Assembly (NCBI GenBank): GCA_963764695.1
Contig: CAVXTW010000015.1
Coordinates: 349,845 to 413,844, forward strand
Source: an uncultured delta proteobacterium
Lineage (GTDB): Bacteria > Myxococcota_A > Polyangia > Haliangiales > Haliangiaceae
Length of the DNA: 64,000 bases
Reading direction: 5' to 3'
Under the pieces are notes generated by a model that was not told the DNA's origin, did not search any database, and saw only the letters and a program-made list of their open reading frames with translations. The first letter of the stretch is position 1, and every line of letters begins with the position of its first letter. Below are positions 13,742 to 50,888 of the stretch, in pieces. The translations under genes and the position numbers were made by a program.

Positions 13742-15460
13742 GTGAGGCGGCACCGCACCGGCGCGCTCCTGGTCTCGATCGGCGTGGTCGCGCTCGCGAC
13801 TGCCACGGTCCTCACCGCCGGCGCCGCGCCGGCAAAGCGCGCCGGGCGCCGCGCTCACCCGCCGCGCGATGCGGTCGCCCGCGTGGATGCCGAGATGGCC
13901 CGGCGCTGGAAGGCGGCCGGGGTCGAACCGGCCGAACCGGCCAGCGATGCCGAGTTCCTCCGCCGCGTCACCCTCGATCTGGCCGGGCGCATCCCCACCG
14001 CGGGCGAGGCGCTCGGCTTCCTGCGCGATCGGTCGCCGCGCCGGCGCGAGCGGCTGGTCGATCGCCTGCTGGCGTCGAGCGACCACGCCGAGTACTGGGC
14101 CGATGTCTACGTCGATCTGCTGGTCGGCCGCGATCTGCGCTTCCAGCCGCGCCGGTCGGAACCTGCGCGCGACTATCTGCGCGGCGCGCTCGCCGCCAAC
14201 ACGCCCTACGACGAGATCGCGACGCAGATCCTGACCGCGTCCGGGCCGCTCGACGGCAACGGTGCGGCCGGCTTCCTGGTGGCACAGGAGCGCAAGGGCG
14301 GCAGCATCGAGGCGGTCGCCGGCGAGACGGCGCGCATCTTCCTCGGGCTCCAAGTGCAGTGCGCGCGCTGTCACGATCATCCGTACGACCAGCGCTACAA
14401 GAAGCAGTCGTTCGCCGACTTCACCGCCTTCTTTGGCGATGTCCGGATCCGGCGCGGCAAGGTCGCGATGGGGCCGCGCGGCTTCATGATCGAGGACCGC
14501 CCGCTTCCGGCCGGCGCCGCGCAGCGCCCGCGCTTCCAGGCGCGCCTGAAGAAGCGGCCCGATCTCGCGTATGCCTTCGCCGAGCCGCGCTACTTCTTCC
14601 GCGCGATCGAGCCGCGGCCGGGAGAGACGAGGCGGCAGCGCCTGGTCCGCGCCATCCTGACCAGCGACCTGTTCGCCAAGGCCGCCGTCAATCGCATCTG
14701 GACCCAGCTCCTCGGCCGGCCGATCGCCGGTGCCAGCTGGGACGACCTCGGCGCCGAGCGCGACGAGAGCCACCCTGCCCTGCTCTCCATCCTGGCCGAC
14801 GACTTCACCGCCACCGGATACGACCATCGCCGCCTGCTGAAGATCATCGCTCTGTCGAGTGCCTACGGGCGGTCGTCGCGCGCGCCCGCCTCAGCAGACA
14901 CCGGCGCGCCCGCTCCAGCAGAAGCGACCACGGCCACCTCCGCCACCGCGACCACCACGGCCTCCACCGCGCCCGACGACACCGGGCCTGCCTTCGCGCG
15001 CATGCCGGTCCGCCCGCTGTCAGCCGATCAGCTCTACCGCTCGCTGCTGGTGGCCGCGGGCCTGCCGACCGGCGACCGCGACGACGCCACCATCCGCGAG
15101 GAGCGGCGGCGCATGCTCGGGCTGCGCGAGTTCCTGTTCACCTTTCCCGACGACGAGGATCGACAGGACGACAGCTTCACCGGCAGCGTGTCCCAGGCGC
15201 TGCTCCTGCTCAACGGCGCGGTGGCCAACCTGGGGTCGCGGGCGCGGCCGGAGCAGGCGCTCGGACGCATCCTGGTCGCCTCGGCCGATCCCGCCCAGCG
15301 CATCGAGTGGATGTTCCTGGCCACCCTCGCGCGCATGCCCACGGCTGCCGAGCGCGATCGCTACGCGGCCTACATCGCCAGGCACAGGAGCTCCCGCGCC
15401 GCGTACGAGGACCTGTACCACGCGCTGCTCACCTCGACCGAGTTCACCACCAACCACTGA
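13742..15460 (+). CDS. DUF1549/DUF1553 (PSD1/PSCyt-type) exported protein
   Basis: Signal-anchor-like N-terminus. DUF1549 motif RRVTLDLAGRIPTAGE. DUF1553 motif LGLQVQCARCHDHPYD. Confidence 0.75.
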   Translation: MRRHRTGALLVSIGVVALATATVLTAGAAPAKRAGRRAHPPRDAVARVDAEMARRWKAAGVEPAEPASDAEFLRRVTLDLAGRIPTAGEALGFLRDRSPRRRERLVDRLLASSDHAEYWADVYVDLLVGRDLRFQPRRSEPARDYLRGALAANTPYDEIATQILTASGPLDGNGAAGFLVAQERKGGSIEAVAGETARIFLGLQVQCARCHDHPYDQRYKKQSFADFTAFFGDVRIRRGKVAMGPRGFMIEDRPLPAGAAQRPRFQARLKKRPDLAYAFAEPRYFFRAIEPRPGETRRQRLVRAILTSDLFAKAAVNRIWTQLLGRPIAGASWDDLGAERDESHPALLSILADDFTATGYDHRRLLKIIALSSAYGRSSRAPASADTGAPAPAEATTATSATATTTASTAPDDTGPAFARMPVRPLSADQLYRSLLVAAGLPTGDRDDATIREERRRMLGLREFLFTFPDDEDRQDDSFTGSVSQALLLLNGAVANLGSRARPEQALGRILVASADPAQRIEWMFLATLARMPTAAERDRYAAYIARHRSSRAAYEDLYHALLTSTEFTTNH

Positions 15461-30425: not shown

Positions 30426-32813
<2,388 letters not shown>

Positions 32814-32835: not shown

Positions 32836-34042
<1,207 letters not shown>

Positions 34043-34064: not shown

Positions 34065-34709
34065 TCAGCGGATCGGGGCGAAGCCGAGCTCGACGCCGTG
34101 TGCGGCCAGCCGGGCCACCAGCTCGGCGCGCTGCTGCGGCGTCGAGTCGTCGCAGCGCAGGCGGCTCCAGCTGACGAAGTCCATGGAGCTGACATGCGAG
34201 GCGCTGTCGCCATGCACGGCGAGCAGGCGCTCGACGAGAGCCTGCGCCACGCCCCGCTCGGAGTCGGCGTGGCCCAGGAAGGTATGCATGGCCTCGCCGT
34301 TGGCCAGAAGCCGCGCCTCACCGCGGGCCAGGTCGGCCAGGGCAAGCATCTCGTGCTCGTCGACCAGCTGCTCGAACACCGCCGCCCACGGCGACAGGAT
34401 CGGCCGATCCTGTCCCTCGCCGTTGACGCGGACCAGGCCGCGCTTCCAGATCTGCGACGGGTCGATGTCTGCGACGGTGAACAGGAGCTGACTTCTGGGC
34501 GCGGGCGGACGATCGACGCCATTCCGCCACGCCTCCGGCTCCCAGGGGACGACGCCGTCGGCACGTCTCGCCGCGCTCACGACCGGCCCGGGCCCGACGA
34601 ACGCGATCGTGTCGCCGTCGGCGATCGCGCCGTGGATGACGTCGACAAGAACGCGAGTCTTCGCGCCCGCCGGCTCGACGTCGTGCACAAGAGCCCTGAA
34701 GCGGAACAT
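34065..34709 (-). CDS. hypothetical protein (paralog A of a tandem pair)
   Basis: [13 protein letters not shown]… shares N-terminal MFRF(E/R)ALVHDVEP and internal LLANGE(A/T) blocks with the neighbouring gene. Confidence 0.5.
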
Positions 34710-34812: not shown

Positions 34813-35505
34813 TCAATTCCAGCGCTGCGCGTAGCTCAGCTCGATGCCGTGCTCGGCCAGGCGGGCGGCCAGGGCGGCCCGCTCCTGCAGCGTGGAGTCG
34901 CGGTGGCCGTAGCGGTCGCGCGTGCAGTACCAGAGGCGCAGATACGACCACTCGTCGATCTCATCGCCTTCCTCGCCGCCGAACAGCGCCCGCATTCGCT
35001 CGGCCAGCACCGAGGCCAGCGCGCGCTCGCCGTACCAGCAGCCCAGGAAGTAGTCGATGGTCTCGCCGTTGGCCAGCAGGCGGTCGTCAGGCCCCGGCCC
35101 AAAGGCCAGCAGGTCGGCCAGCGCGATACCCTCCTCGAGGGTGGACAGGAGGTCGAAGGTGGCCGCCCACGGGCACAGGATCGGCGACGGCTCGCCGGCG
35201 AGCACCTGGCTCTGCACGCGGCCGCGCCGCCACACCTGCGACGGCGGCACCTGGTTGACCACCAGCAGAAGACGACTCCCGTTAACCGGAGGCCGCCCGC
35301 GCTCGTCGTCCCACTCGTCGAGCTCGCCGACCGCCAGCTGGTCGACGGCACCCACAATCTCGCACCCGCCCGGGCCGACAAAGGTGACGGTTTCGCCCGG
35401 GCCGAGCGACCCACGGATGACGTCTACCTCGATTCGCGCGCCGCAGCACAGGCCGCCCTGCGCGACCGGCTCGACGTCGTGCACAAGCGCTTCGAACCGG
35501 AACAT
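34813..35505 (-). CDS. hypothetical protein (paralog B of a tandem pair)
   Basis: [13 protein letters not shown]…. Start ATG at 35503-35505 lies 4 nt from the tRNA-Lys 3' end. Confidence 0.5.
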   Translation of the reverse strand: MFRFEALVHDVEPVAQGGLCCGARIEVDVIRGSLGPGETVTFVGPGGCEIVGAVDQLAVGELDEWDDERGRPPVNGSRLLLVVNQVPPSQVWRRGRVQSQVLAGEPSPILCPWAATFDLLSTLEEGIALADLLAFGPGPDDRLLANGETIDYFLGCWYGERALASVLAERMRALFGGEEGDEIDEWSYLRLWYCTRDRYGHRDSTLQERAALAARLAEHGIELSYAQRWN

Positions 35506-35709: not shown

Positions 35710-35933
35710 CAGTGGCCGCGAGGCCGGGCGGGTTAGATAGCCGTGGGGGCGCTCCGGTGTCAAGTGAAGTCGGCGACGTGCGTGCACGCTTGCCACTCGG
35801 GGACGTTTGTGTAAGCCGAATTAACGTGTGGTTGCCTGTTCTCCAATTCTCGGGCCGCAGCTGAAGCTTGTATCATCGTGCGCCCCCACGAGCTCAAGGG
35901 GTTGCGCCTACCTGCCAACGGGTGGAGGACAAC

Positions 35934-38423
35934 ATGTCGAAGCTCCGGCGCGCCGTCCGCGGCGATCGTGATCGACTTCTCCTTGCCGGCCTCGTGCTGG
36001 CCATCGCAGGCTGCGGAGGCGATGGCTGTGCTGGCTGCGATCTGGCTCCTCTGCCGGCCGGCGGGTTGCCCGCCGACCAGACGATCGAGGGCGGCGCCCA
36101 GGTGCGCGTGGCGCCGAGCGGCTTCGGCAAGGTCGAGGAGATCGTCGGCGGCATCATCGACGACGCGCTCGGCGGCGGCGTCTGCATCCCGGAAGGCGAG
36201 GAAGACCTCGGCTTCATCGGCAACCTCACCTTCTGCTTCGAGAACCAGGGCGACTGCACCCCGGGATGCGACGCCGACATCGCGGTCGACTCGGTCGAGC
36301 TCACCCCGGAGCCGGGCCAGCTGCGCATCAGGGCGCAGTTCGACGTCCAGACCGACCTGCGCGTGCACCTCGCCATCAACGTCTTCCCCGACGTCAACTG
36401 CACGCTCGGCGTCACCGCCAACAACACCGTCGTCAACGCGCTGGTCGGCGTCGGCACCGATCCGACAAGCGGCGAGCTGACCGTCAGCCTGATCGACATC
36501 CCCGGCTTCGAGGTCGACCCGGACTTCAGCGGGTGCGGCATCGCCGGCGCGGTGATCAACTTCCTGGGCGGCCTGTTCGGCGACGTCATCTCGGACTTCG
36601 TGCTCGGCGCGCTCGAGCCACAGCTGCAGACCCTCATCGCCGAGCTGCTGCCGGATCCGCTCGGCATCGAGAACACGCTCGACCTGGGCGGCTTCCTGAC
36701 CACGCTGTCGCCCGGCACGACCGGCGCGCTCGAGGCGCGCGTGGTGCCCGGCGGCTACGCCTTCGTCGAGGGCGGCGGCCTGAGCGTCGGCATCCTCTCC
36801 GGCATCAACACCGACCGCGATCCGACCACGCGAACGCCCGAGCTCGACAGCGAGCCGGCGCTGTGCGTGCCGCCGATGCTGGCGCCCGACCTGGCCGCGC
36901 TGGGGCTGCCGCAGTCGCCGCGCGGCAACTTCGTGTTGCCGGCGGCCGGCGCCTTCCGCGGCCAGCCGGAGGACCCGAACAGCGACGTGGCGATCGGCGT
37001 GTCGCAGACCTTCCTCGACATGGCCGGCCACCACGTCGTCACGTCGGGGGCGCTGTGCCTCGGGATCGGCACGCAGACAATTCCGCAGCTCAACCTCGGC
37101 ATCATCGGCGTCGTGGTCCCGTCGCTGGGCCTGCTCGGCGAGGCCAGCGACCCGATGCTGCTGGTGACGCGTCCGAGCGGCGCGATCGACTTCACCGTCG
37201 GCGATGGCACCGAGGAGTCGCCGTCGCTCACCCTCCACCTGCAGGGCTTCCAGATCGACTTCTACGCGTTCCTGTTCCAGCGCTACGTGCGCGGCTTCAC
37301 CGTCGGTCTCGACCTGAACGTGGGCGTCAACCTCGAGTTCGCCACCGACGAGGAGGGCAACCCGCAGCTGGTGCCGGTCCTGGTCGGCCTCAACGCCGCG
37401 AACATCGGGGTGGACGTCCACAACGAGGAATTCCTGCAGGAGGGCAGCGCCGACCTGGAGGGCCTGCTGCCGTCGCTGCTCGAGCTGGCGCTGCCATTCC
37501 TGACCGGCGCGCTGCCGGAGATCGACGTGCCGGAGATCCTCGGCTTCCGCCTCGAGGGGCTGCGGCTGAGCAAGGTGACCACCGCCGACGATGACTTCCT
37601 GGCCATCTTCGCCACCCTGGGCGCGTCGCAGACGCTGGCCCGCCTGTCGCAGCAGTTCCCGGGCGTGGCCAGGGTGCACCAGCGGATGATGGCGGCGGCC
37701 CCGGCCGTCCCGGCACGCGCGGTGGCGCGCGGCAAGGCGCGCCTGGTGCGCGTGACGACGCCGAAGCCGGAGGCGATCCGCGCCCACCTGCGCGGCGAGG
37801 GCGGCGCCATGCCGCAGGTCGTGATCGACGTGCCCGCCCGCGACGAGCAGGGCCGCGATCTGGAGTGGACCTGGAACCTGGGCGGCGGCCTGTGGCGTCC
37901 GTTCCGCACCGGCGCGCAGCTGGTGATCGAGGAGCGCGCCTTCGCCATGCAGGGTCGTTATGCGATCCAGCTGCGCTCGCGCGTGGCCGGCGACTACCGC
38001 ACGCTGTCGCTCGAGCCCGAGGTGGTGCCGGTGGTGATCGACTCGGTGCCCCCGCGCATCCTGGTCGCCAGGGCCGCGGCGAAGGACGGCGCGATCACGG
38101 TGCCTGCGGAAGATCTCGTGACGCCGGCCGACAAGATCCAGCTGGCCTTCGGCGCGGCCGATGACGACGCGCCGGTGACGGCGTGGGGCGCGGGCAGCGT
38201 GACGGCGGAGCAGGCCGGCCAGCTGGCCGATGGCTCCGGGTCGCTTCGGGTCTGGGCGCGCGACGAGGTGGGCAACCAGTCGACCGCGCTCTTCGACGCG
38301 AGCGGGATGGTGAAGCTCGACGCGGCGGACGGGTGCGCCTGCCAGGCCAGCGGTGGACGCTCGGCGAGCGGGCTGGCGCTTCTGGTCCTGGCCGCGCTGC
38401 TCGGGCTCGGCCGCCGGCGCAAG
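35934..38423 (+). CDS. large surface lipoprotein ending in a MYXO-CTERM-like sorting motif (module 1 of a 1,814-codon uninterrupted ORF)
   Basis: RBS ggagga before ATG 35934. Lipobox LAGLVLAIAGCGG. C-terminal …DAADGCACQASGGRSASGLALLVLAALLGLGRRRK (GC motif, TM helix, Arg cluster). No stop codon follows. Confidence 0.5.
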
Positions 38424-39950
38424 ATGTGGCAGAAGATCGGCCGCGCCGGGCGGGCGATCGCGTTCGTGCTCGCGGCCGGCGCGCTGGCCGCGCAGCCGGC
38501 CTGCAGCTGCGGCAACAACAACGACGACGACGACAGCGGCGCCACCGACGCCGACGACGGCGACGACGACGCCACCGGGCCGATGTGCGAGACAAACGAC
38601 GACTGCAGCGACGAGTGCCCCGGCGAGGTACCTATCTGCGACGGCGAGCAGCAGTGCCAGTGCGACAGCGACGTGCAGTGGGGCCGCATCGGCCAGTTCT
38701 CGGAGATGGACGTCGCGCCTGACGGCACCGTCTGGGTGTCGGCCTACAACGCGTATCATGGCGACCTCATGATCGCGTCGCGCGACGAGGACGGCCGCAT
38801 CCCGGACGAGGCGTGGCAGTTCGTCGACGGCGTGCCCGACGGCCCGGTCCTGGTGCCGGGCAGCGACGTGCGCGGCGGCATCAACGAGCCGGGCCCGGAC
38901 GTCGGCCTGTACACCGACATCGCCGCCACCGACGGCGCCGTGGTGGTGACCCACTTCGATCAGGACACCGCCTCGCTGCGCTTCACCAGCAACCGCAGCG
39001 GCGGCTGGGTCACGCACGTCATCGACGAGGGCGTGCCGGCCCCGGAGAAGCCGGAGGGCGCCACCTTCGAGATCGCCGGCCAGTACTCGGCCGTGAGCTT
39101 CGATGCGGAGAGCCGCCCCGGCGTCGCGTACTTCGCCCACGTCCAGGACGGCGAGGGGGCGCGCAGCGAGCTGCGCTTCGCCCAGGCAGCCTCCAGTGAC
39201 CCGACCCAGGCCGGCGACTGGACCGTCAGCGTCATCGACAGCGCGCCGGTCCCGGCCCCGGGCAACGACCCGCTGCCGATCCCGATCGGCGTGGGCCTGT
39301 TCGTCAACGCGGCCCGGCTGGCCGACGGCAGCCCGGTGGTCGTCTACTACGACCGGGTCAACGGCGACCTGAAGTCGGCCCGCTACAACGCCGGTGCCGG
39401 CGCGTTCGATCCTCCCCAGATCCTCGACGGCGCGTCGGTCGACGTCGGCTGGTATCCCGGCGTGACCGTGGACGCCTCCGACGTGCTGCACGTGAGCTAC
39501 GTGAGCGCGGCCAACCACGATCTCCTCTACATGAACACCGCGACCGGCACGGTGGAGCTCATCGACGACGGCTATCGCGAGGTCGGCCAGACCGAGGACG
39601 GCCTGCCCATCCCGGACTTCCACTTCGTGGGCGACGACAGCTCCGTGGTGCTGGACGCGGCCGGGCTGCCGGTGGTCGCCTACCAGGACGCCACCACGCA
39701 CGAATTGCTGGTTGCGCGGCGCGACGCGGCCGGCGTCTGGACGCGCGAGACCTGGGCCGGCGACGAGACCGAGTTTGCAGGCGGCTACGGCTTCTACATC
39801 TCGGCCGACACCGCCGGCGAGGAGATCATCCTGTCCACCTGGGTCATCGACCTGCCGACCGAGGAGTACTGGATCGAGATCCTGCGCGACCCGGGAGAGC
39901 CTCCGGTCGAACTGAGGGCCCGGCTCCGGCCTCTGATAGGATCGAGGCCG
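38424..39950 (+). CDS. module 2 of the same ORF: lipoprotein-signal-bearing, acidic-linker, beta-propeller-like repeat protein
   Basis: In-frame ATG 38424 then MWQKIGRAGRAIAFVLAAGALAAQPACSCG lipobox-like signal, D-rich linker, Cys-rich knot (CETNDDCSDECPGEVPICDGEQQCQCD). Repeated …VVVTHFD…/…VVVYYD…/…LHVSYVS…/…VVAYQD… strands. Confidence 0.4.
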
Positions 39951-41312
39951 GTGCTTTTCTATCGCATCTTTCAGTGGCTGCTGCGGCTGGCCACGCGCGT
40001 GTTCTTTCGCCGCATCGAGATCGTCGGCCTGGGCAACCTGCCGGTCGAGGGTGCGGTCATCTTCTGCGGCAATCACCCCAACTCGCTGCTCGACCCGATC
40101 CTCATCACCGCCCACTGCGGCCGCATCGTGCACTTCGCGGCCAAGGACACGCTGTTCGAGAGCCGGCTCATGGGTGCGCTCCTGCGCCGCATGGGCGCGG
40201 TGCCGATCAAGCGGCGCATGGATCATCCGGGCCAGGAGGCGACGTCGAACGAGGACGCCTTCGCGGCGCTGCACCAGGTCCTGCTCGACGGGCGCGCGGT
40301 CGGCATCTTCCCGGAGGGGCTGAGCCACCTCGACTCGCAGCTGGCCCCGCTCAAGACCGGCGCGGCGCGCATCGCCCTGGCGGTCAAGCGCAAGGCGCCG
40401 GACAAGAAGGTCGCCCTCATCCCGACCGGCCTGGTCTACTTCACGCGCCACCGCTTCCGGTCGAGCGTGCTCATCCAGTTCGGCGCGCCGGTCGTCGTCG
40501 AGCTGCCGGCCACGGGTGAGGCGGCCGAGCGCGACGCGGCGCGGGCGCTGACCGGGCAGATCGAGGCGCGGCTGCGCGCGCTCACGGTCAACGCCGACTC
40601 GTGGGACACGATCTGGGTGCTCGACGGCGTGCGCCGGCTCTACCAGCCGCCCGACATGACGCTCGAGGATCGCGTCGAGCTGGCCCGCCGCTTCAACGTC
40701 GCCTATCCACAAGTCTCGCATCACCCGGAGGTGCGCGACCTCTACGGCCGCGTGCGCTCGTACCTGACCCGCATGTCCGCCGCCGGGCTGCGCGACGATA
40801 TCCTGCGCCGCGAGCTCGGGGTGGGCGACACGCTCTCGCGCGTCGTCGGCCACCTCGGGCTGCTGCTGTTCTGGACCCCGCTGGCGCTGGTCGGCGCGCC
40901 GCTCCACCTGCCGCTCGGGCTGCTGTTCCGCTACGTGGGCCGGTGGACCGCGCCGCGCAAGGACACGGTCGCCAGCACCAAGTTCCTGATCGGCTTTCTC
41001 ACCCTGCTGGCGGTGTATGCGGCGCTGGCCGTCCTGGCCGGCTGGAAGCTGGGCATCTGGGCCGGTGCGCTCACCGCGCTGGCGCTGCCGCTCTCCGGCT
41101 GGGCCTTCGTGCACGTGATCGGGCGCGTCAACGCCATGCGCCACCTGGTGCTGACCTTGCTGCGCGTGATGAGCCTGCGCCGTGAGGTGGCGGCGCTGCG
41201 CGCCGAGCGCGCCCGGCTGGTCGAGGACATCGTCGCCGCTGTCGATCGATTCCGCCCGGACGGCATGGAGCCGATGTTCGGCCCGCGACGCGGCGCGCCG
41301 GGAGAGACATGA
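39951..41312 (+). CDS. module 3 of the same ORF: lysophospholipid/1-acyl-glycerol-3-phosphate acyltransferase (PlsC/LPLAT family) with C-terminal TM segments
   Basis: In-frame GTG 39951 then VLFYRIFQWLLRLATRVFFRRIEIVGLGNLP. Acyltransferase motifs CGNHPNSLLDP (HxnD), FPEGLSH (FPEG). Hydrophobic C-terminus. Confidence 0.6.
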   Translation: MLFYRIFQWLLRLATRVFFRRIEIVGLGNLPVEGAVIFCGNHPNSLLDPILITAHCGRIVHFAAKDTLFESRLMGALLRRMGAVPIKRRMDHPGQEATSNEDAFAALHQVLLDGRAVGIFPEGLSHLDSQLAPLKTGAARIALAVKRKAPDKKVALIPTGLVYFTRHRFRSSVLIQFGAPVVVELPATGEAAERDAARALTGQIEARLRALTVNADSWDTIWVLDGVRRLYQPPDMTLEDRVELARRFNVAYPQVSHHPEVRDLYGRVRSYLTRMSAAGLRDDILRRELGVGDTLSRVVGHLGLLLFWTPLALVGAPLHLPLGLLFRYVGRWTAPRKDTVASTKFLIGFLTLLAVYAALAVLAGWKLGIWAGALTALALPLSGWAFVHVIGRVNAMRHLVLTLLRVMSLRREVAALRAERARLVEDIVAAVDRFRPDGMEPMFGPRRGAPGET

Positions 41313-41980
41313 GCGGCGCCGACGAGCGCCCGGCGGTCGTGTTCCTCCACGGCCATGGGCGTACCCACCGCTCGATGAATCCGTTGCGCCGCCACGTCGA
41401 GTCGCTGGGCTACACCACGTGGGCGCGCACCTACCCGTCGCGCCGCGCACCGATCGCCGCCATCGCCGACGAGGTGGCCGGCTGGATCCGCAGCGACCTG
41501 GGCGAGCGACCGCTGGTCGGCGTGACTCACTCGATGGGCGGCATCCTGGTCCGCTACATGCGCGACCGCCTGCCCTGGCGCGGGGTGGTGATGCTTGCCC
41601 CGCCCAACCAGGGCAGCGTGGTGGCCGCCCACCTGGGCCAGAGCCCGCTGTTTCGCTGGATGTACGGCCCGGCCGGGTGCGAGCTGGGCGACGCTGCGGA
41701 CTGGCCGCATCCGCCCGAGCCGTTCGCGGTGGTGGCCGGCACGCGCGGCCCGAGCTGGGGCAACCTGCCCAGCTTGCTCATCCGCGGCATGCGCCTGATC
41801 CCGGCCGGCGAACCCCACGACGGGACGGTCCGGGTGGCCGAGACGCGGCTCGACGGCATGGTCAGCTTCGCCGAGGTCGACGCCAGCCACACGTTTCTCA
41901 TGAACCACCCGGCCACCCGCGAGCTGGTCGGTCGATTCTTGAAGACAGGCCGGTTCACCGACGGCGGCGCGGCCAGGTAG
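41309..41980 (+). CDS. alpha/beta-hydrolase (lipase/esterase-like), start overlaps the acyltransferase stop
   Basis: Motifs VVFLHGHGRT and VGVTHSMGGIL (GxSxG). ATGA overlap at 41309-41312. Confidence 0.7.
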   Translation: MSGADERPAVVFLHGHGRTHRSMNPLRRHVESLGYTTWARTYPSRRAPIAAIADEVAGWIRSDLGERPLVGVTHSMGGILVRYMRDRLPWRGVVMLAPPNQGSVVAAHLGQSPLFRWMYGPAGCELGDAADWPHPPEPFAVVAGTRGPSWGNLPSLLIRGMRLIPAGEPHDGTVRVAETRLDGMVSFAEVDASHTFLMNHPATRELVGRFLKTGRFTDGGAAR

Positions 41981-41998: not shown

Positions 41999-42817
41999 GT
42001 GAATTCTGTCGAGTACAATGCGGCCATGTCGACCGGCCGCGGCATCAGCGAGCTCGCCTTCGCGCTGCCGCCGTCGCTCGGGGTCGATCCGGTCAAGGAG
42101 CTGGCCCGCCGCTTCGCCGACGTGCTCTACGGCGCCGGCTTCTCGACGGTGGTGCCGATGAAGTCGTACGAGCAGCTCGAGCAGGCGCTGCAGGAGGGCG
42201 AGGTCGACGCGGCGTGGGGCCCGCCAATCGTGTGCGCGCGCGTCGAGTCGATCGGCGGCCAGGTCGCGCTTCGCGCGGTGCGCTACGGCGCGGTCACCTA
42301 TCGCTCGGTCCTTGTCTGCCGCACCAGCGACTCGCTCGACCTGCGCCAGCTCGGCCCCGAGGGCGGGCGCCTGGCCCGCGCGGCCTGGGTCAACCCGCAC
42401 TCGATGGCCGGCTACGTCCTGCCCCGACATTACCTGCGCGCGCGCGGCATCGACGCCCGGCGCGCCTTCTCCGACGAGTGGCTGCTCGGCTCGTACGAGG
42501 CATGCTTCGAGGCGGTGCTGCGCGGCGAGGCGGACATCACCGCGTCGTTCGCCAACCGGCGCGGCCTGGGCTACCAGGAGCTGTGCCGCGAGCGCGCCTT
42601 CGACCTGCGCACGCTGGGCTACACCGACGAGTGCCCCAATGACGGCGTCGTGCTGAGCCCGCGGCTCGACCCGGAGCAGGCCAGCGCGCTCCTGGCCGGC
42701 CTGCACAAGCTCATCGCGCACCCGTCGTCTCTGTCGGTCCTTACCTCGACCTTCGATGTCGATGGCTTCGACCGGCCGCCCGCGTCGAGCTACAGCCCGC
42801 TGCTTTCGCTGCTTTAG
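41999..42817 (+). CDS. PhnD/SsuA-like (phosphonate-binding-fold) periplasmic-binding-protein-like protein without signal peptide
   Basis: Family-like blocks LAFALPPSLGVDPVKELARRFADVL…VDAAWGPP…VLVCRTSDSLDLRQLGPEGGRLA. Alternative start at 42026. Confidence 0.5.
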   Translation: MNSVEYNAAMSTGRGISELAFALPPSLGVDPVKELARRFADVLYGAGFSTVVPMKSYEQLEQALQEGEVDAAWGPPIVCARVESIGGQVALRAVRYGAVTYRSVLVCRTSDSLDLRQLGPEGGRLARAAWVNPHSMAGYVLPRHYLRARGIDARRAFSDEWLLGSYEACFEAVLRGEADITASFANRRGLGYQELCRERAFDLRTLGYTDECPNDGVVLSPRLDPEQASALLAGLHKLIAHPSSLSVLTSTFDVDGFDRPPASSYSPLLSLL

Positions 42818-42863
42818 CGGTTTTCGGTCACGAATTCGCGGCCGGCGCGTACTTGCACCCCAG

Positions 42864-43445
42864 ATGCTGGCGCAAGTGACCGCGGCCTGTGCGGCCGATC
42901 CGGACCCGATCGTCGCGCTCATCGAGGAGGGCAAGCACCGCGAGGCGGTCGCCCTGTGCGCCAGACAGCACGGCCCGGCGATCGGCCGGCTGTGCATGGC
43001 GCTGCTCGGCTCCCAGGCCGACGCCGAGGAGGCGGCCCAGGAGACGCTGCTTGCCGCGTGCGGCCAGATGGGCGCTTTTCGCGGCGACGGGACCGTGCGG
43101 GCCTGGCTGTTCGGCATCGCCCGGCGCCAGTGCGCGCGCCGCTTCGAGCAGGGGCTGCGCGACCGGCGCCGGCTGGAGCTTGTGCCGGGTATGGGGGTCG
43201 GCCCGGATGAGGCCTCGCCGGCCGCGACGGTGGCGACGATGCGGCGGGCGCGGGCGGTGCGGGCGGCTCTGGCGGTGCTGCGGCCGAGCGAGCGCGAGGC
43301 GCTGCTGCTGCACTACCAGGCCGGGTTGAGCTTTCGCGAGATCGCCGAGCTGAGCGGCATCGAGGAGGCGGCCGCGCGCAAGCGGGCGAGCCGCGGCCTG
43401 GCCCAGCTGCGCCGATCCATCACCTCCGACAGCGTGGAAGGATGA
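42864..43445 (+). CDS. ECF sigma factor
   Basis: Region 2 EEAAQETLLAACGQMGAFRGDGTVRAWLFGIARR. Region 4 LSFREIAELSGIEEAAARKRASRGLAQLR. Stop overlaps next start (ATGA). Confidence 0.75.
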   Translation: MLAQVTAACAADPDPIVALIEEGKHREAVALCARQHGPAIGRLCMALLGSQADAEEAAQETLLAACGQMGAFRGDGTVRAWLFGIARRQCARRFEQGLRDRRRLELVPGMGVGPDEASPAATVATMRRARAVRAALAVLRPSEREALLLHYQAGLSFREIAELSGIEEAAARKRASRGLAQLRRSITSDSVEG

Positions 43446-46400
43446 CGATGACTGCGAACAACGAGGCATGCGAGCGCTTCCTGGACGATCTGGCCGCGGT
43501 GGCCGACGGCGACCCGGATGTGCTGGCGCTCCACCTGGATCATCTCGAGCAGTGCGACGCCTGTCGCGATGCGCGCCACGAGGCGACGACCGTGCTGGCC
43601 GCGGTTGCGGCGGCGGGAGATGACTTCGTGGCCCCGGCCGATCTGGAGGCGCGCGTGCTGGCTCACGTCGACGCGCAAGCGGCGACGAGCTCGGCGACGG
43701 CCGAGGCCCCCACAGGCGCGGCGAGCGCCGAGCCGGAGGCAGTGACGGTGCGCGAGGCTCGTGCCCCGAACGGCGCGGCCGGGCCGGCCGATGCTCGCGC
43801 GCATCGTCGCGGACGGCGCGCATGGCTCATGGCCGGCGGCCTCGTCGCCGCGGCCGCCGCCTCGGTCGTCATCGTCGCGCGCGACGACGGCGAGGATTGG
43901 ACGCGCCCGCCGACGGGCGCGTCGGCAAGCTGGACCGGCAAGGTCGCCGTGGTCGACCGCGCCGCCGCCGACAAACGACCCGGCATCGAGGTGCGGCTCG
44001 ACGGCGCCCGCGAGTTCGCACCGGCCGGGCCCGGCGTGATGCTGCTGGCCGGCGCCGCGCTGCGCACCGACGACAGCACCCGCATCGAGCTCGCGCTGAG
44101 CGACGGCACCCGTGTCTATCTCGACCACGCGACCGAGGTCGCGCTCGGGCGCGGCGGCCGCGAGCTCGTGCTTGCGCGCGGCAACCTGGTCGCCGACGTC
44201 GCCCATCTGGATCGCGCACCGAACGCCGTGTTTCGCGCACCGACCGGCCGCGTCGAGGTCCTGGGCACGCGTTTCTCGCTCAGCGCCACCGACGACCACG
44301 CCAGCGTCCGCGTGGTGCGCGGGGCGGTGCGGCTGGTCTCGGATCGCGGCCAGGTCAACGTGCGTCCCGGCGAGGAGGGCACCGCCGGCCGCGTCGGGCC
44401 GCCCGAAGTGGCGGCCGCCGGCGACGTGGTGGCCGCGGTCGGCTGGTCGGAGCTGCTGGCCGCCGGCGAGCCGTCCGACGAGCTGCCGGCCGGCATCGGC
44501 GAGCTGCGCGCCCTCAAGCCGGGCGAGAAGCGCGATCGCGACTGGAAGCTGGCCCTGTCGCGCCACCGGGTGACCGTGCGCATCGCCGGCAACGTGGCGC
44601 GCACCGAGATCGAGGAGACCTTCCAGAACGACAGCCCGACCGCGCTGGAGGGCGTGTACCGCTTCCCGCTGCCGCCCGACGCGCGCATCGAGCGGCTCGC
44701 CCTCGACGTGAACGGCGCCATGGAGGAGGGCGCGTTCGTGGCCAAGGATCGCGCGGCCAGGATCTGGAAGGGCGTCATCCAGAAGGCGGCCCCGCGCAAG
44801 ATCGCGCCGCGCGACGAGATCATCTGGGTGCCGGGCCCGTGGCGCGATCCGGCGCTGCTCGAGTGGCAGCAGGGCGGTCGCTTCGAGCTGCGCATCTTCC
44901 CGATCCCGGCCCGCGGCGCGCGCACCATCCAGCTGGCCTACACGCAGATCCTCGAGCCGCAGGGCGCCGGCTCCGAGCGGCGCTACGTCTATCCGCTGCC
45001 GCACCACGACGGTGCGAGCGCGGCCCGGGTCTTCGACATCGATGTCCGCCTGAGCGGCGCCGACGCCTCGCGCGAGCCGCGCGTCGCCAGCTACCCGGTC
45101 GAGCAGCGCCGCGAGGGAGACGCGCACCGGTTCACGATGCACGCGAACGACTTCCGCCCGCGCGGCGACTTCGCCGTCGAGTACGCCCTGCCCGACAGCG
45201 CGGCCGAGCTGCGCGCCTGGAGCTTCGCCGGCGCGGCGGCGGCCGCTCCGACGGTGGCGGCGTCGCGTCGCGGCGGCGGCGATCCGGCCGTTGTCGCGGC
45301 CCAGCGCGAGATCGCGGCCGACGCGCGGCCGACAGCGCTCGTGGCCCTGCGCCCGCGCCTGCCCCGCTGGACCGAGAGCCGCGCGCGCGACATCGTGCTC
45401 GTGGTCGACAGCAGCCAGTCGATGGTGGGCGAGCGGTCCGCGCGCGCCCGCAAGCTGGTGACCGCGCTGGTCGGCGAGATGGACCGGCGCGACCGCTTCG
45501 CGCTGCTGGCCTGCGACGTGGACTGCCGCGCGTTCGCACCCGAGGCGCAGCCACCGTCGGCGGCGGCCGCGAAGCGCGTCGGCGAGTGGCTGGGCCAGGT
45601 GCAGCCGGCCGGCGCATCGGATCTCATCGGCGCGCTCGAGCGGGCTGCCCGCCTGCGCGGAGCGCGCGAGGCGTGGATCATCTACATCGGCGACGGAGCG
45701 GCCACCACCGGCTACCGGCGCCAGTCGGATCTGAAGGCCGAGGCGGCCGCGCTGGCCGGGCGCGAGCGCGTCTCGATCAGCACCGTCGGGATCGGCGGCG
45801 ACGCCGACACCAGCGCGCTGGCCACCGTCGCGCGTGCCGGCCACGGCTTCTTCACCCCGTACGCGCCCGGCCAGCGGGCCGAGCTGGCCGCCCTGTCGGT
45901 GCTCGAGACCACCTTCGGCGTGGCGCTTGTCAACCCGGTCGTCGAGCTGCCGCCCGGGCTCGAGGATGTCAGCCCGGCCGAGCTGCCCACCCTGCGCGCG
46001 GGCCAGGAGCTGCTGGTCGCCGCGCGCATGACCGGTCCGGTCCGCGGCCACGTCGTCCTGCGCGGCACCGTCGGTGGCAAGCCGTACCGCAACCGCTTCC
46101 CGATCGCGCTGGAGCCGAGCGCGGCGCGAGGCAACGCGTTCGTGCCGCGCGTGTGGGCGGCGCTGACAATCGAGCGCATGGAGCTGGACGGCGCCGACCA
46201 GGCCCGCATCGTGGCCATGTCGCAGGCCTACGGCGTGCTGTCGCGCCACACGTCGCTGCTCGTGCTCGAGAGCCCGGCCATGTTCCGCGCCTTCGGCGTG
46301 GACCGCAGCCGGCCGGCGCTCGAGTGGAGCGGCGACGAGGCGGCCGAGGCGGTCGAGTCGACGGGCGAGGTCCGCCACGACGCCACGACGCGCAGGCCGC

Positions 46401-47545
46401 GCCTGGCCAGCAGCGGCTACGGGAGAGGCGCGGGCGGCATGGCCGGTGCCGCCGACAAGGGTGCCGACGTGGTGGGCGGAATCGCCGCGGCGGGCGAGGC
46501 CGCCGCCGAGGACGAGAGCCTGGACGTGAAGGCGAAGAACATCGAGGCCCGGGAGCAGCCGAACAAGGCACCCGTCGTCCAGGCGCCGATGCAGCGGGCC
46601 AGGCGAATGATCCCGATGCGGCGCGAGTGGTTCCGCACCGGCGAGGTCGGCGCCTTCGATCGCTTGTCGAGCCGCATGCTGGACGCGGTGGCGCGGGCAG
46701 ATAGCGCGCACCGGCTCGAGCCAGACAGCCGCGAACGACACCGGGCCCTGGTCCAGGCGCTGGCCTACGCCGGCGATCTCGAGCGCGCGTTCCAGTCCGC
46801 GTCGCGCTGGCTCGAGCGCGACCGCATGGATCCGGAGGCGCTGGTCTACATGGCCGACCTGCTCGGCCGCCAGGGCCGCCGCGCCGACGCGGTGCGCCTG
46901 CTCTCCGGCGTCGTCAACCTCGAGCCGGACCGCCGCGATCTTCACCTGCGCCTGGCCGAGGCCTACGACCGGATCGGCGCCGACGACCGGGCCTGCTCGC
47001 ACCGCGTCGCCCTCGCCGCCCTGGCGCCGGCCGACGCTGCCACGCTCGGCGGGGCGCTCCGCTGCCAGCGGCTGACCGGCCGCGGCGAATCGGCCGATCG
47101 CATGCTGCGCGGCATCGCCGACGCCGGACTGCGCGCCCGGGTCGAGACCACGTCCGCCCTGCCGCCGAGCGGCGAGCGCGCCGCCGGCGACCTGATCGTC
47201 GACGCCAGCTGGGAGGCTCCTGTCGATCTCGACGTCTCGCTGGTGGCGCCGGACGGAAAGCGCATCTCGTGGCTGGGCGGCCGCACCGGCGTCGCGGTCG
47301 AGCGCGCGGGCGAGGCCGGCCGCGAGCGCCTCGGCCTTCGCCGCCTGCGCGCCGGCAACTACCTGGTCGAGGTCGCGCGCAGCGATCCGTCCGATCGCTC
47401 CCCGGTGCGCGGACAGCTGGCCATTCGCGCCCTGCGCGCCCGCGGCAGCCTGCCCTTCCTCCTCACCGGCGACCGCGCGGTGGTCGGCCGCGTCACCGTG
47501 ACCCGCGAGTCGCGGCTGGTGCCCCTGAGTCCGACGCCGTTCTAG
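43442..47545 (+). CDS. giant anti-sigma factor: N-terminal zinc-finger anti-sigma domain, TM, FecR-like domain, VIT domain, von Willebrand A domain, TPR-like C-terminal region (1,367 aa)
   Basis: HLDHLEQCDACRD (HxxxCxxC). TM …WLMAGGLVAAAAASVVIV. FecR-like TRVYLDHATEV…LARGNLVADV. VIT-like SRHRVTVRIAGNVARTEIEETFQN. vWA MIDAS-like DIVLVVDSSQSM. Helical repeats at the end. Confidence 0.7.
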   Translation: MTMTANNEACERFLDDLAAVADGDPDVLALHLDHLEQCDACRDARHEATTVLAAVAAAGDDFVAPADLEARVLAHVDAQAATSSATAEAPTGAASAEPEAVTVREARAPNGAAGPADARAHRRGRRAWLMAGGLVAAAAASVVIVARDDGEDWTRPPTGASASWTGKVAVVDRAAADKRPGIEVRLDGAREFAPAGPGVMLLAGAALRTDDSTRIELALSDGTRVYLDHATEVALGRGGRELVLARGNLVADVAHLDRAPNAVFRAPTGRVEVLGTRFSLSATDDHASVRVVRGAVRLVSDRGQVNVRPGEEGTAGRVGPPEVAAAGDVVAAVGWSELLAAGEPSDELPAGIGELRALKPGEKRDRDWKLALSRHRVTVRIAGNVARTEIEETFQNDSPTALEGVYRFPLPPDARIERLALDVNGAMEEGAFVAKDRAARIWKGVIQKAAPRKIAPRDEIIWVPGPWRDPALLEWQQGGRFELRIFPIPARGARTIQLAYTQILEPQGAGSERRYVYPLPHHDGASAARVFDIDVRLSGADASREPRVASYPVEQRREGDAHRFTMHANDFRPRGDFAVEYALPDSAAELRAWSFAGAAAAAPTVAASRRGGGDPAVVAAQREIAADARPTALVALRPRLPRWTESRARDIVLVVDSSQSMVGERSARARKLVTALVGEMDRRDRFALLACDVDCRAFAPEAQPPSAAAAKRVGEWLGQVQPAGASDLIGALERAARLRGAREAWIIYIGDGAATTGYRRQSDLKAEAAALAGRERVSISTVGIGGDADTSALATVARAGHGFFTPYAPGQRAELAALSVLETTFGVALVNPVVELPPGLEDVSPAELPTLRAGQELLVAARMTGPVRGHVVLRGTVGGKPYRNRFPIALEPSAARGNAFVPRVWAALTIERMELDGADQARIVAMSQAYGVLSRHTSLLVLESPAMFRAFGVDRSRPALEWSGDEAAEAVESTGEVRHDATTRRPRLASSGYGRGAGGMAGAADKGADVVGGIAAAGEAAAEDESLDVKAKNIEAREQPNKAPVVQAPMQRARRMIPMRREWFRTGEVGAFDRLSSRMLDAVARADSAHRLEPDSRERHRALVQALAYAGDLERAFQSASRWLERDRMDPEALVYMADLLGRQGRRADAVRLLSGVVNLEPDRRDLHLRLAEAYDRIGADDRACSHRVALAALAPADAATLGGALRCQRLTGRGESADRMLRGIADAGLRARVETTSALPPSGERAAGDLIVDASWEAPVDLDVSLVAPDGKRISWLGGRTGVAVERAGEAGRERLGLRRLRAGNYLVEVARSDPSDRSPVRGQLAIRALRARGSLPFLLTGDRAVVGRVTVTRESRLVPLSPTPF

Positions 47546-49413: not shown

Positions 49414-49456
49414 AGCCTCGGGAGGCCGCCCTGGCTTCCCTCGGCCTGTTGTTGCG

Positions 49457-50888
49457 CTACTTGCGGGCCCCCCGGGGCGACCCGAACTTGTCCGGCTGCG
49501 GGCCCGGCGTCACGCCGCCGGCGGCGTCGATCAGGATGTCGTTTCGCGCCCGGCTTGATCTCGATGCGCTTGCTGACCGGCTCGGCGCTGCGCTCGGTCC
49601 AGGCGCGCAGCGTGTACGTCCCGGGCCGCAGCCTGTGGAACTTGAAGGCGCCCTTTTCATCGGTGACCACGTAGTGCGGAGCGCCGACCACGACGATCGA
49701 CGTGGACATGTTCGCGTGCAGGTTGCAGCCGATCCTGACGATGCCCTCGCGGTCGAAGCGCACCTCGCGCGACTGCCCGTTCTTGAAGATGCCGAGGTCG
49801 AACGGCCGCGCGTCGGAGCGCGAGAACACGTTGTGGTAGATCGCGTCGAAGTTGGGGAACGCGACGGTCGAGCCGACCGACACCGCGGCCAGGCGCGGCG
49901 CGAAGGCGCGGCCGCGCTGCTCGATCACGTGCGGCTTGGCGACCCGCTTGCGGTACTTGCCGCGCACCGGCGTCAGCATCACGACGCCGAACGCGTCGTC
50001 CACGTCCGCGCCGTCCAGGCGCAGCCGGCCGGACAGCTGCGAGCGCGCCGGCTTGCCGGACGGGTCGTCCTCGTCCGAGCCGCCGATAGCCCCCTTGGGC
50101 TGCGGCTCGCTACCCTCCGGCGCCTTCTCGAGCGCGGTGGCGATGCGCGGCGGCGCGCCGGTGCGAAACAGCGGCGCCAGCTCTGCCACCGCCGACGGGC
50201 TGGTCCACAGCTCGACCATGCTGAACAGCTGATCCGCATACGAGCGCTGGCCGCGGCGCAGCGCCGTGAAGGCCGCCCCCATGATCTCGGCGTGCTTGCC
50301 GAAGCGCTTCAGGTCGCGGCTCGCGGCGTCGATGCGCTCCAGCTCGTCGCCCGACGGCTTCTCGTCCGGCGGGATCACGATGTCCTGGCGGGTCGCGCCG
50401 ATGGCGCCGAGCACCTCGTGCCGCTCGGCGACACCGACCTTGAACTTGTCGAGCGACCCGACCAGCGCCTCGACCGTGGCGTCCCATTCCTCGTCGACGA
50501 TCTGCATCTGCACGTGCAGTCCGCGCATCGGGCGCCCGCCGTACTTGCACGGACCGCCCGACGCCGCGCACACGAAGTCGATCAGCTGGGTCGTCAGCTC
50601 ATCGATGTCGCTGTTGGCGAAGCGATACTTGACCCGCACATCACCGGCCAGCCGCGTGACGAACTCGCCGACGACAGCCTCGATGGCCGGCTTTCCGCCG
50701 AGGCGCTCGTACAAGCTTTTTGGTGGCCCGGTCGGCTTCTTCTTCTTCTCGGCGCGCGCAGCCCGCTTCGGCGCAGCCGGCTCCGGGTCAGGTGTGGATG
50801 CGCCGCACGCGACGACCGCAACCAGCGCGGCCGCGCACGCGAGACGAACGATATTGCGGATGACAGCAGTCCCGCTCTTCAGTCGCAT
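49457..50888 (-). CDS. lipoprotein with N-terminal truncated-hemoglobin (2/2 globin) domain and C-terminal carboxypeptidase-regulatory-like beta-sandwich; +1 frameshift near nt 49543
   Basis: Lipobox RLACAAALVAVVACG. trHb signature LYERLGGKPAIEAVVGEFVTRL…GGPCKYGGRPMRGLHVQM. CarboxypepD_reg-like …PGTYTLRAW…. Listed ORF 49353..51218 changes frame at ggcgcgAAAcgac; corrected reading ends …ILIDAAGGVTPGPQPDKFGSPRGARK* at 49457. Confidence 0.6.

Follow-up and report, generated by a model that had tools for sequence, protein, structure and literature searches.

Does a plus-strand open reading frame (ORF) of 1,814 codons on contig CAVXTW010000015.1 (assembly GCA_963764695.1, Haliangiaceae) encode one large multi-module protein, or does it join genes that are separate in the organism? 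The window analysed here is a 64,000-nucleotide (nt) stretch of this contig at 72% G+C, and all coordinates are window positions. An earlier note on this DNA read the ORF as three gene-like segments without intervening stops: a lipoprotein with a MYXO-CTERM sorting signal (module 1), a second lipoprotein-like segment with a beta-propeller-like body (module 2) and a PlsC-type acyltransferase. It left the choice between a genuine precursor and lost stops or assembly error. The two joins have different answers, with a genuine precursor favoured at the boundary of modules 1 and 2 (junction 1) and an assembly error at the boundary with the acyltransferase (junction 2). We consider it probable that the ORF consists of two genes, A and B, joined by error, and that gene A is itself a natural fusion of two modules.

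Two genes in one reading frame

The ORF (35868..41312) opens with TTG and encodes 1,792 amino acids (aa) from the ATG at 35934. GC content at third codon positions (GC3) is 0.88–0.99 in one frame from ~36000 to 41300, with the second-position GC minimum one base earlier, as a plus-strand gene should show, and a simple GC-periodicity hidden Markov model (HMM) assigned 36051–41280 to a single plus-strand coding state. Because GC3 is high in one frame throughout, the whole stretch is coding in a single frame and is not a stop-free accident. The ORF list and GC3 thus bear out the long stop-free ORF as first described, and all of its segments were found. An antisense ORF of 1,896 aa (35760..41450, minus strand) lies opposite the entire ORF and is a compositional by-product of plus-strand coding at 95% GC3. 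We found no database record of the exact 1,792-aa product. The features of the ORF are as follows.

35934 to ~39912, plus strand: gene A, ~1,326 aa, member of a Kofleriaceae/Haliangiales family
35934–36014, plus strand: lipoprotein-type signal peptide, MSKLRR...LAIAG then C27, with a hydrophobic segment at aa 15–31
36081–37697, plus strand: double-TULIP (BPI/CETP-like) module, predicted to bind lipid, ~aa 50–588
37740–38297, plus strand: FN3/Ig-like beta-sandwich domains that close module 1, ~aa 603–788
38331–38423, plus strand: internal MYXO-CTERM-type signal, G800-C801-A-C803, helix SASGLALLVLAALLGLG, then RRRK
38412–38453, plus strand: Arg-rich loop, RRRKMWQKIGRAGR, including a non-conserved ATG at 38424
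38454–38513, plus strand: second hydrophobic helix, AIAFVLAAGALAAQPA then CSCG (P-[GA]-C-x-C-G), homologous to a signal peptide
38580–38666, plus strand: Cys-rich mini-domain after an Asp-rich linker, a helix and two strands with 6–8 conserved Cys
38688–39890, plus strand: beta-propeller, the body of module 2 (AlphaFold2 (AF2) model, predicted local distance difference test score (pLDDT) 89.5, predicted TM-score (pTM) 0.86)
39909–39915, plus strand: frameshift site GAACTGA, with one extra A (39910 or 39911) and the ancestral TGA at 39913–39915 out of frame
39916–39950, plus strand: former intergenic spacer, translated through as LRARLRPLIGSRP in the window
39951–41312, plus strand: gene B, a separate acyltransferase gene with a GTG start, 453 aa, PF01553

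Junction 2, first placed at 39930–39960, lies at 39909–39951. The window reads GTC GAA CTG A at this point; in the alignment, relatives end CCG GTC GAC and then TGA or TAG. Comparison with orthologous loci, which the earlier note had proposed, found a stop in all five relatives aligned there (GTCGAC-TGA in L083 and L001, GTCGAC-TAG in L002 and L074, GTCGAA-TGA in L084) and the extra A in none of them. The stop codon was accordingly not lost, one of the options first considered, but is intact and out of frame through the A inserted at 39910. Locus L083, from the metagenome scan, is 95.5% identical to the window in nucleotides over 3,050 nt; apart from two triplet gaps that keep the frame, the only gap between them is this single A. 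The two closest matches, L001 (93% aa identity) and L002 (84%), carry the family gene as an ORF of 1,334 or 1,335 aa, followed by a spacer of ~35–45 nt, a gene of its own for the acyltransferase (PF01553, 452 aa) in a different frame and an overlapping hydrolase gene.

Other genes in the window are broken by similar insertions. Aligned to L001 (92% identity over 13 kb), the window has further uncompensated +1 insertions at 30961, 31946, 32516 and 33364, at each of which the GC3 phase steps by one, and a probable one at 49546. Searches by tblastn with the L001 proteins recovered a FadB-like gene (3HCDH/ECH, 30426–32810) broken at ~30961, 31946 and 32516 into frames 3/1/2/3, and a thiolase gene (32875–34042) broken at ~33364 into frames 1/2. 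The fragments of both are 89–97% identical in aa to their L001 counterparts, with GC3 >0.9 on both flanks. L001 has both genes unbroken, and L002 an unbroken thiolase plus a single ORF for as much of the FadB-like gene as its contig covers. The frame change at ~49542 also appears in the GC-periodicity HMM. Five to six frame-breaking insertions in ~16 kb, all of them insertions, mostly in homopolymers and without other decay, carry the signature of read or assembly error and not of evolution.

Further irregularities lie elsewhere. The probable insertion at ~49546 lies towards the 3' end of a minus-strand gene of globin/CarboxypepD_reg type (49437–50715). The GC3-periodicity HMM switches frame without a clear gene boundary at ~14854–14973, 21518, 24566, 55054, 55904 and 58991, which may be more indel errors or merely adjacent genes. 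L074 (91% nucleotide identity), whose name suggests a long-read metagenome-assembled genome (MAG), is more frameshifted than the window.

The +1 shift displaces the stop of gene A and by chance brings gene B into frame; the GC-rich spacer has no stop in the shifted frame. Since the insertion is unique to the window and other +1 insertions break conserved genes, the fusion at junction 2 is very likely a sequencing or assembly artefact, in line with the assembly-error option of the earlier note. Counting against this, only the reads could prove the A at 39910 erroneous, and a real recent mutation would look alike. Such a mutation would extend gene A into the acyltransferase, whose own GTG and ribosome-binding site would probably still drive its translation: the A is present in the sequence as given, the GTG start is intact with purine-rich AGGA and GAGG ahead of it, and the hydrophobic acyltransferase N-terminus could serve as a further transmembrane (TM) helix. 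We nevertheless consider a real mutation improbable, given that no relative has the insertion, even at 95.5% nucleotide identity, that four to five more +1 insertions lie in the window in conserved metabolic genes otherwise undecayed, and that all are insertions, most of them lengthening a short homopolymer, as is typical of read errors. Less probable still, to the point of deserving little weight, is a genuine three-module protein spanning all 1,792 aa. The frame is unbroken, with coding-type GC3 along its full length, but of the 233 proteins that matched the full-length ORF at E ≤ 1e-10, the best 120 include no homologue that extends into the acyltransferase or covers >74% of the query. In each of the 75 loci where the match to module 2 runs to its end, a stop comes 0–9 codons later, and the acyltransferase adjoins the family gene only in the five closest relatives, always as a separate gene in another frame.

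Gene B is an ordinary, separate acyltransferase of the PlsC superfamily and not part of the fused family. The GTG start (at 39951) and the PlsC-type enzyme with C-terminal TM helices are present as first described. The protein scores 71.5 bits against PF01553 (gathering score 23; E 7.5e-20 to 5e-19), and the L001 protein aligns to it by tblastn at 91% identity in one frame. It resembles known PlsC/LPLAT acyltransferases in this match and in its C-terminal TM helices, and differs in missing the specific models for AGPAT, Aas and OlsA, falling below the NCBIfam equivalog cut-offs (62.8 against 102.95 for AGPAT, TIGR00530; far below for Aas and OlsA).

A conserved fusion and its unfused relatives

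Junction 1 has a different history. The best 120 of the 233 homologues are 1,275–1,409 aa long and span modules 1 and 2, or ~71–74% of the query in nearly all cases. Column conservation was read from a 121-sequence alignment, in which the two modules form one chain down to ~42% identity; a 52-sequence alignment (A2) was also used. A scan of GTDB genomes yielded 139 relatives confirmed by tblastn; 80 loci were kept, almost all of them from Kofleriaceae, Haliangiales or 'Myxococcales' MAGs. The search for stops in orthologous loci gave the opposite result to that at junction 2: 80 of 82 loci carry modules 1 and 2 together in a single frame that no stop interrupts. The exceptions are L074, which is noisy, and L075, where the stop lies elsewhere.

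These comparisons indicate that junction 1 is a genuine, family-conserved two-module architecture in a protein of ~1,300 aa, and the idea of a multi-module precursor with an internal sorting signal holds here across the family. The assembly does contain demonstrable indel errors, which could suggest a lost stop or frameshift at junction 1 also; we give that next to no credence, as the junction is unbroken in those independent loci and in all 120 listed protein clusters, to the same ~42% identity.

Two hydrophobic helices and an Arg-rich loop form a hairpin at junction 1, and unfused relatives suggest where its parts come from. A profile search with the loop, second helix and module 2, followed by a search with P0156, found ten stand-alone module 2 homologues of 476–499 aa (P0156, P0265–P0270 and P0272–P0274). 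They start with an ordinary N-terminal signal peptide ending in xG, followed by CxC; examples of the signal ends are MASRAREAALGVLLLLGAAG then CQHD, ALCPG then CNCSE, and SLHAG then CNCGS. The split loci (L096, L098/L099 and L100/L101) come from independent short-read-style assemblies (k141, SPAdes NODE, Logan), L098 and L099 being two samples and L100 and L101 likewise. Directly upstream lies a module 1 homologue (gene 1) of 863–885 aa, with 32–35% identity over ~810–840 aa (E 1e-97 to 1e-125). It has an N-terminal lipoprotein signal and, in L096, L098 and L100, ends in FHGR..GGCGC, a TM helix, RRRR and a stop. Gene 2 (482–489 aa) either starts 1 nt beyond the end of gene 1 or overlaps that gene by 8 nt; in L098 it has a GGAGG ribosome-binding site. 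Genes 1 and 2 are adjacent and translationally coupled in these other Polyangia. As the split homologues share both segments, the hairpin corresponds to the sorting tag of gene 1 joined to the signal peptide of gene 2, and homology indicates that the window family is a fusion of a two-gene operon. The P0156-like subfamily holds both fused and split forms, so the two states appear to interconvert.

Two more loci were set aside as evidence of splitting, each with a possible frameshift: L097, where the suffix of the contig name suggests nanopore data, and L102, where the split falls before the MYXO-CTERM motif. In the latter (L102:1605–5596), a 799-aa gene overlaps by ATGA a 531-aa gene starting MSEFHGR..GGCGC..helix..RR..helix..AGCNCGG, which may reflect either a genuine alternative split or a frameshift.

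The signals of the fused protein were examined column by column. At the N-terminus, the lipobox LAIAG and following Cys of the first description are confirmed; C27 is present in 117 of the 121 homologues, with [G/A/S][A/G] at −2/−1 and a GC..GC motif after it, and on these columns the family N-terminus can be taken as a canonical lipoprotein signal. At the end of module 1, G800 and C801 occur in 121 of 121 sequences and C803 in 102, ahead of a helix (aa 810–826, Kyte-Doolittle mean 2.07) and RRRK. The invariant Cys motif, the TM helix with its Arg cluster, the N-terminal signal and the Myxococcota host all agree with a MYXO-CTERM protein. The location does not: the signal ends at aa 830 of ~1,326 and not at the extreme C-terminus, and every fused relative also has it at an internal position. 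TIGR03901 scores 19.5 bits on aa 800–829 against a cut-off of 20, and matches the internal site each time in P0001 (22.5 bits), P0007 (33.4) and P0013 (25.4). The 'complete' MYXO-CTERM signal first described thus stands in its parts (GCAC, helix, RRRK), with a borderline model score and an internal position. A motif scan of the window found no MYXO-CTERM-like motif besides this one.

The loop that follows is hypervariable in length and sequence. In 115 cleanly parsed homologues it spans 3–46 aa, the median counts are 8 R/K and 0 D/E, and the net charge never falls below +3; over the 121-sequence alignment it is 32% Arg. So basic a loop is presumably cytoplasmic by the positive-inside rule, which would place both large modules outside. 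The in-frame ATG and lipoprotein signal previously called 'textbook' are both present here, with two departures from that description. Met stands at the column of ATG 38424 in only 2 of 121 homologues, for which reason we rejected internal translation from it, and Pro occupies the −2 position of the signal in most of the family. The second helix has an uncharged run of 15–24 residues (median 20) and ends in the motif P-[GA]-C-[SDN]-C-[GS], with P855 in 107 of 121 sequences, G/A856 in 116, C857 in 116 and C859 in 120. The segment at aa 827–857 therefore pairs a basic n-region and an uncharged h-region with a Cys motif that departs from the lipobox [LVI][ASTVI][GAS]C at −2, and it is internal, not N-terminal, in the window. 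The PROSITE PS51257-type lipobox rule excludes Pro at −2. In a minority of members the motif has one Cys and the −2 residue is Gly, Leu or Ser (for example LMGG or LGLG, then C). The NCBIfam model NF058595 ('invert_tail', lipo-invert putative C-terminal anchoring domain) gives weak matches exactly on the hairpin (P0004, aa 800–872, 17.4 bits; P0271, aa 30–79, 15.6 bits; cut-off 37). It may describe a related hairpin-type anchor; we found no literature on it.

Proposed processing of the internal signals

We propose that the N-terminal signal is inserted by Sec, which then exports module 1. The MYXO-CTERM helix would stop transfer, and the second helix would act as an internal start-transfer signal for the export of module 2, the Arg loop serving as its n-region. 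Two cuts might follow, one by myxosortase (MrtX) at the internal GC motif once this is lipidated, the other before C857 by a signal peptidase, either SPase I or, after Lgt, LspA. The products would be two lipid-anchored envelope proteins in 1:1 ratio, as in the split-gene species, and the hairpin would be discarded. MrtX cleaves MYXO-CTERM signals Cys-dependently, probably after lipidation, and type II secretion then delivers the product to the surface (PMC11980579). We put the chance that at least the MrtX cut happens at even or slightly above. That both cuts happen, yielding a surface-exported double-TULIP protein lipid-anchored at both ends and a propeller lipoprotein as its obligate 1:1 partner, is a more tentative proposal, which we rate somewhat below even. 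Topology, both cleavages and lipidation are predictions throughout. Resolution into two lipid-anchored proteins is the most economical reading because MrtX is known to cleave MYXO-CTERM signals and stand-alone homologues use the second helix as an N-terminal signal that is cleavable or lipid-modified, and the invariance of both Cys motifs beside a hypervariable loop fits two cuts.

Several points weigh against this proposal. We infer cleavage at both sites, and an uncleaved two-helix anchor would account for the topology too. The Pro at −2 breaks the canonical lipobox, so processing by LspA is uncertain. The TIGR03901 score of the window lies slightly below its cut-off, no match to this model was found in P0021, P0036 and P0055, nor in P0004, and the C-terminal copies in the split gene 1 proteins are also below the cut-off (18.5, 15.5, none).

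Were the hairpin left uncleaved, gene A would yield a single polypeptide held by two inner-membrane helices and the N-terminal lipid, with periplasmic ectodomains and the Cys motifs forming disulfides or a metal site. The mirror-image motifs (G-C-x-C ... C-x-C-G) would lie on the same face of an antiparallel helix pair and could be disulfide partners, and the Pro at −2, which is non-canonical for LspA, and the members without a TIGR03901 match point the same way. Retention of the fusion in 80 of 82 loci means that the linkage itself could be selected. We find this arrangement unlikely, if less so than the alternatives considered at either junction. The split relatives have a free C-terminal tag and a free signal peptide, the latter removed or anchoring alone; the loop is hypervariable, as expected of a discarded linker; and the Cys motifs of MYXO-CTERM signals are known cleavage determinants (PMC11980579).

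Folds, neighbours and known systems

Annotation of modules 1 and 2 through Pfam, NCBIfam and the PDB gave nothing usable, with only weak BNR_4 and chance Cys-rich peptide matches, and their folds were read from AF2 models. Module 1 (pLDDT 85.5) is modelled as two helix-in-curved-sheet barrels, that is, two tandem TULIP barrels, followed by the beta-sandwich domains. It has no Pfam match at E ≤ 0.1, LBP_BPI_CETP included, and no PDB sequence-profile match, and we infer its lipid-binding function. Both the Asp-rich linker and the beta-propeller-like body attributed to module 2 were recovered. After the linker, the Cys-rich unit is modelled as H32–38, E43–46 and E51–55; Cys 885, 891, 895, 902, 908 and 910 are invariant or nearly so in the 52-sequence alignment. 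It resembles cysteine-stabilised peptide folds, with PDB profile matches at chance level (E 0.15–0.9). The modelled propeller is most like 7-bladed fucose lectins and sialidases; Foldseek against the PDB returned PLL/PHL fucose lectins and sialidases at E 1e-11, TM 0.5–0.7 and 10–15% identity.

Downstream of gene B, one further gene enters the argument.

41309–41980, plus strand: alpha/beta-hydrolase gene, 223-aa ORF overlapping the acyltransferase stop (ATGA), with weak abhydrolase Pfam matches

The ATGA overlap is present as the earlier note described it, and L001 has the same 4-nt overlap. The functional coupling to lipid-handling genes that was read into the arrangement is unsupported: the neighbourhood of acyltransferase, hydrolase and PhnD-like genes occurs only in L001–L004 and L074, the five closest relatives. 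Clustering the neighbouring ORFs of loci with usable flanks gave no conserved operon partner, the best cluster being an MltA lytic transglycosylase downstream in 20 of 64 loci. With no conserved partner, and with the acyltransferase/hydrolase neighbourhood confined to those relatives, we dropped the idea of lipid-gene coupling. In two of these close relatives (L074:9985–11615, L003:4413–6340), the family gene and the acyltransferase are 1.6–1.9 kb apart, with other sequence intervening, so adjacency is not fixed even among near relatives.

Flanking regions hold two other features. Upstream, paralogous minus-strand genes at 34068–34709 and 34816–35505 encode proteins of 214 and 230 aa with 44% mutual identity, one of which has a weak TetR_C_28 match; only L001, L002 and L074 keep the pair in this position ahead of the family gene. 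Downstream, the region 42756–47545 encodes an ECF sigma factor (229 aa) and a FecR/VIT/VWA/TPR protein (1,367 aa). Positions 42942–47467 have no counterpart in L001, although L074 does align at the start of the region, which has the look of an inserted sigma/anti-sigma-like cassette.

Internal MYXO-CTERM motifs have been described as rare (PMC11980579). The one case discussed is MXAN_5598 of Myxococcus xanthus, read as a two-gene fusion whose N-terminal part is proposed to be processed and surface-anchored (PMC11980579). Gene A is likewise a Myxococcota envelope protein with a mid-chain MYXO-CTERM signal interpreted as a fusion, but the two are unrelated in sequence: MXAN_5598 combines an adhesin with an outer-membrane beta-barrel/OmpA part, whereas the window family joins a double-TULIP module to a propeller. 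MXAN_5598 is also a single case; the window family covers a whole clade with unfused operon versions, and its downstream half begins in a signal-peptide homologue with a conserved Cys motif. The gene layout of split relatives L096 and L100 recalls TraA of M. xanthus, a MYXO-CTERM surface protein whose gene lies directly upstream of and overlaps that of its partner TraB (PMC11980579, PMC3325183). There is no homology between the pairs: in place of the OmpA-domain protein TraB stands a propeller with a lipoprotein-type signal, and in the window family the pair is fused. As cited in PMC11980579 (Abdul Halim et al. 2017, J Bacteriol 199:e00802-16), a Haloferax volcanii Tat substrate has a non-C-terminal tripartite signal processed by the archaeosortase ArtA. 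To the extent described there, it provides experimental precedent for a sortase-type tripartite signal working internally, with an archaeal PGF-type signal, another enzyme class and no sequence relationship to the family studied here.

For module 1, a known bacterial parallel is Bdellovibrio TipA/TipB, in which a BPI-like double-TULIP protein works with a neighbouring beta-rich partner (bioRxiv 10.1101/2025.09.09.675085). The partner of TipA is a C2-like sandwich and that of module 1 a propeller, and TipA has no described anchoring by an N-terminal lipobox and a MYXO-CTERM signal, as predicted for module 1. From BPI/CETP proteins, module 1 differs in having 11–14% sequence identity to them and, as noted above, no LBP_BPI_CETP match. 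What is new is the family-wide, back-to-back arrangement of a MYXO-CTERM signal and a signal peptide with unfused counterparts; an internal MYXO-CTERM signal as such was already known from MXAN_5598.

For annotation, one indel in a 72% GC assembly makes a spurious 190-kDa 'fusion protein', and the window has several such errors. For biology, junction 1 identifies a BPI-like/propeller pair of predicted envelope lipoproteins in Polyangia. The family is a natural test case for whether MrtX and LspA/Lgt act on internal signals, for their minimal recognition motifs (GC-x-C and P-G-C-x-C) and for the cooperation of a BPI-like lipid-binding protein with a lectin-like propeller in the myxobacterial envelope. 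If both cuts happen, the family would show that a C-terminal sorting tag can function internally, as can an N-terminal lipoprotein signal, and gene A would encode the first bacterial 'polyprotein' resolved wholly by envelope sorting enzymes, possibly as part of a lipid-handling device of the myxobacterial outer membrane.

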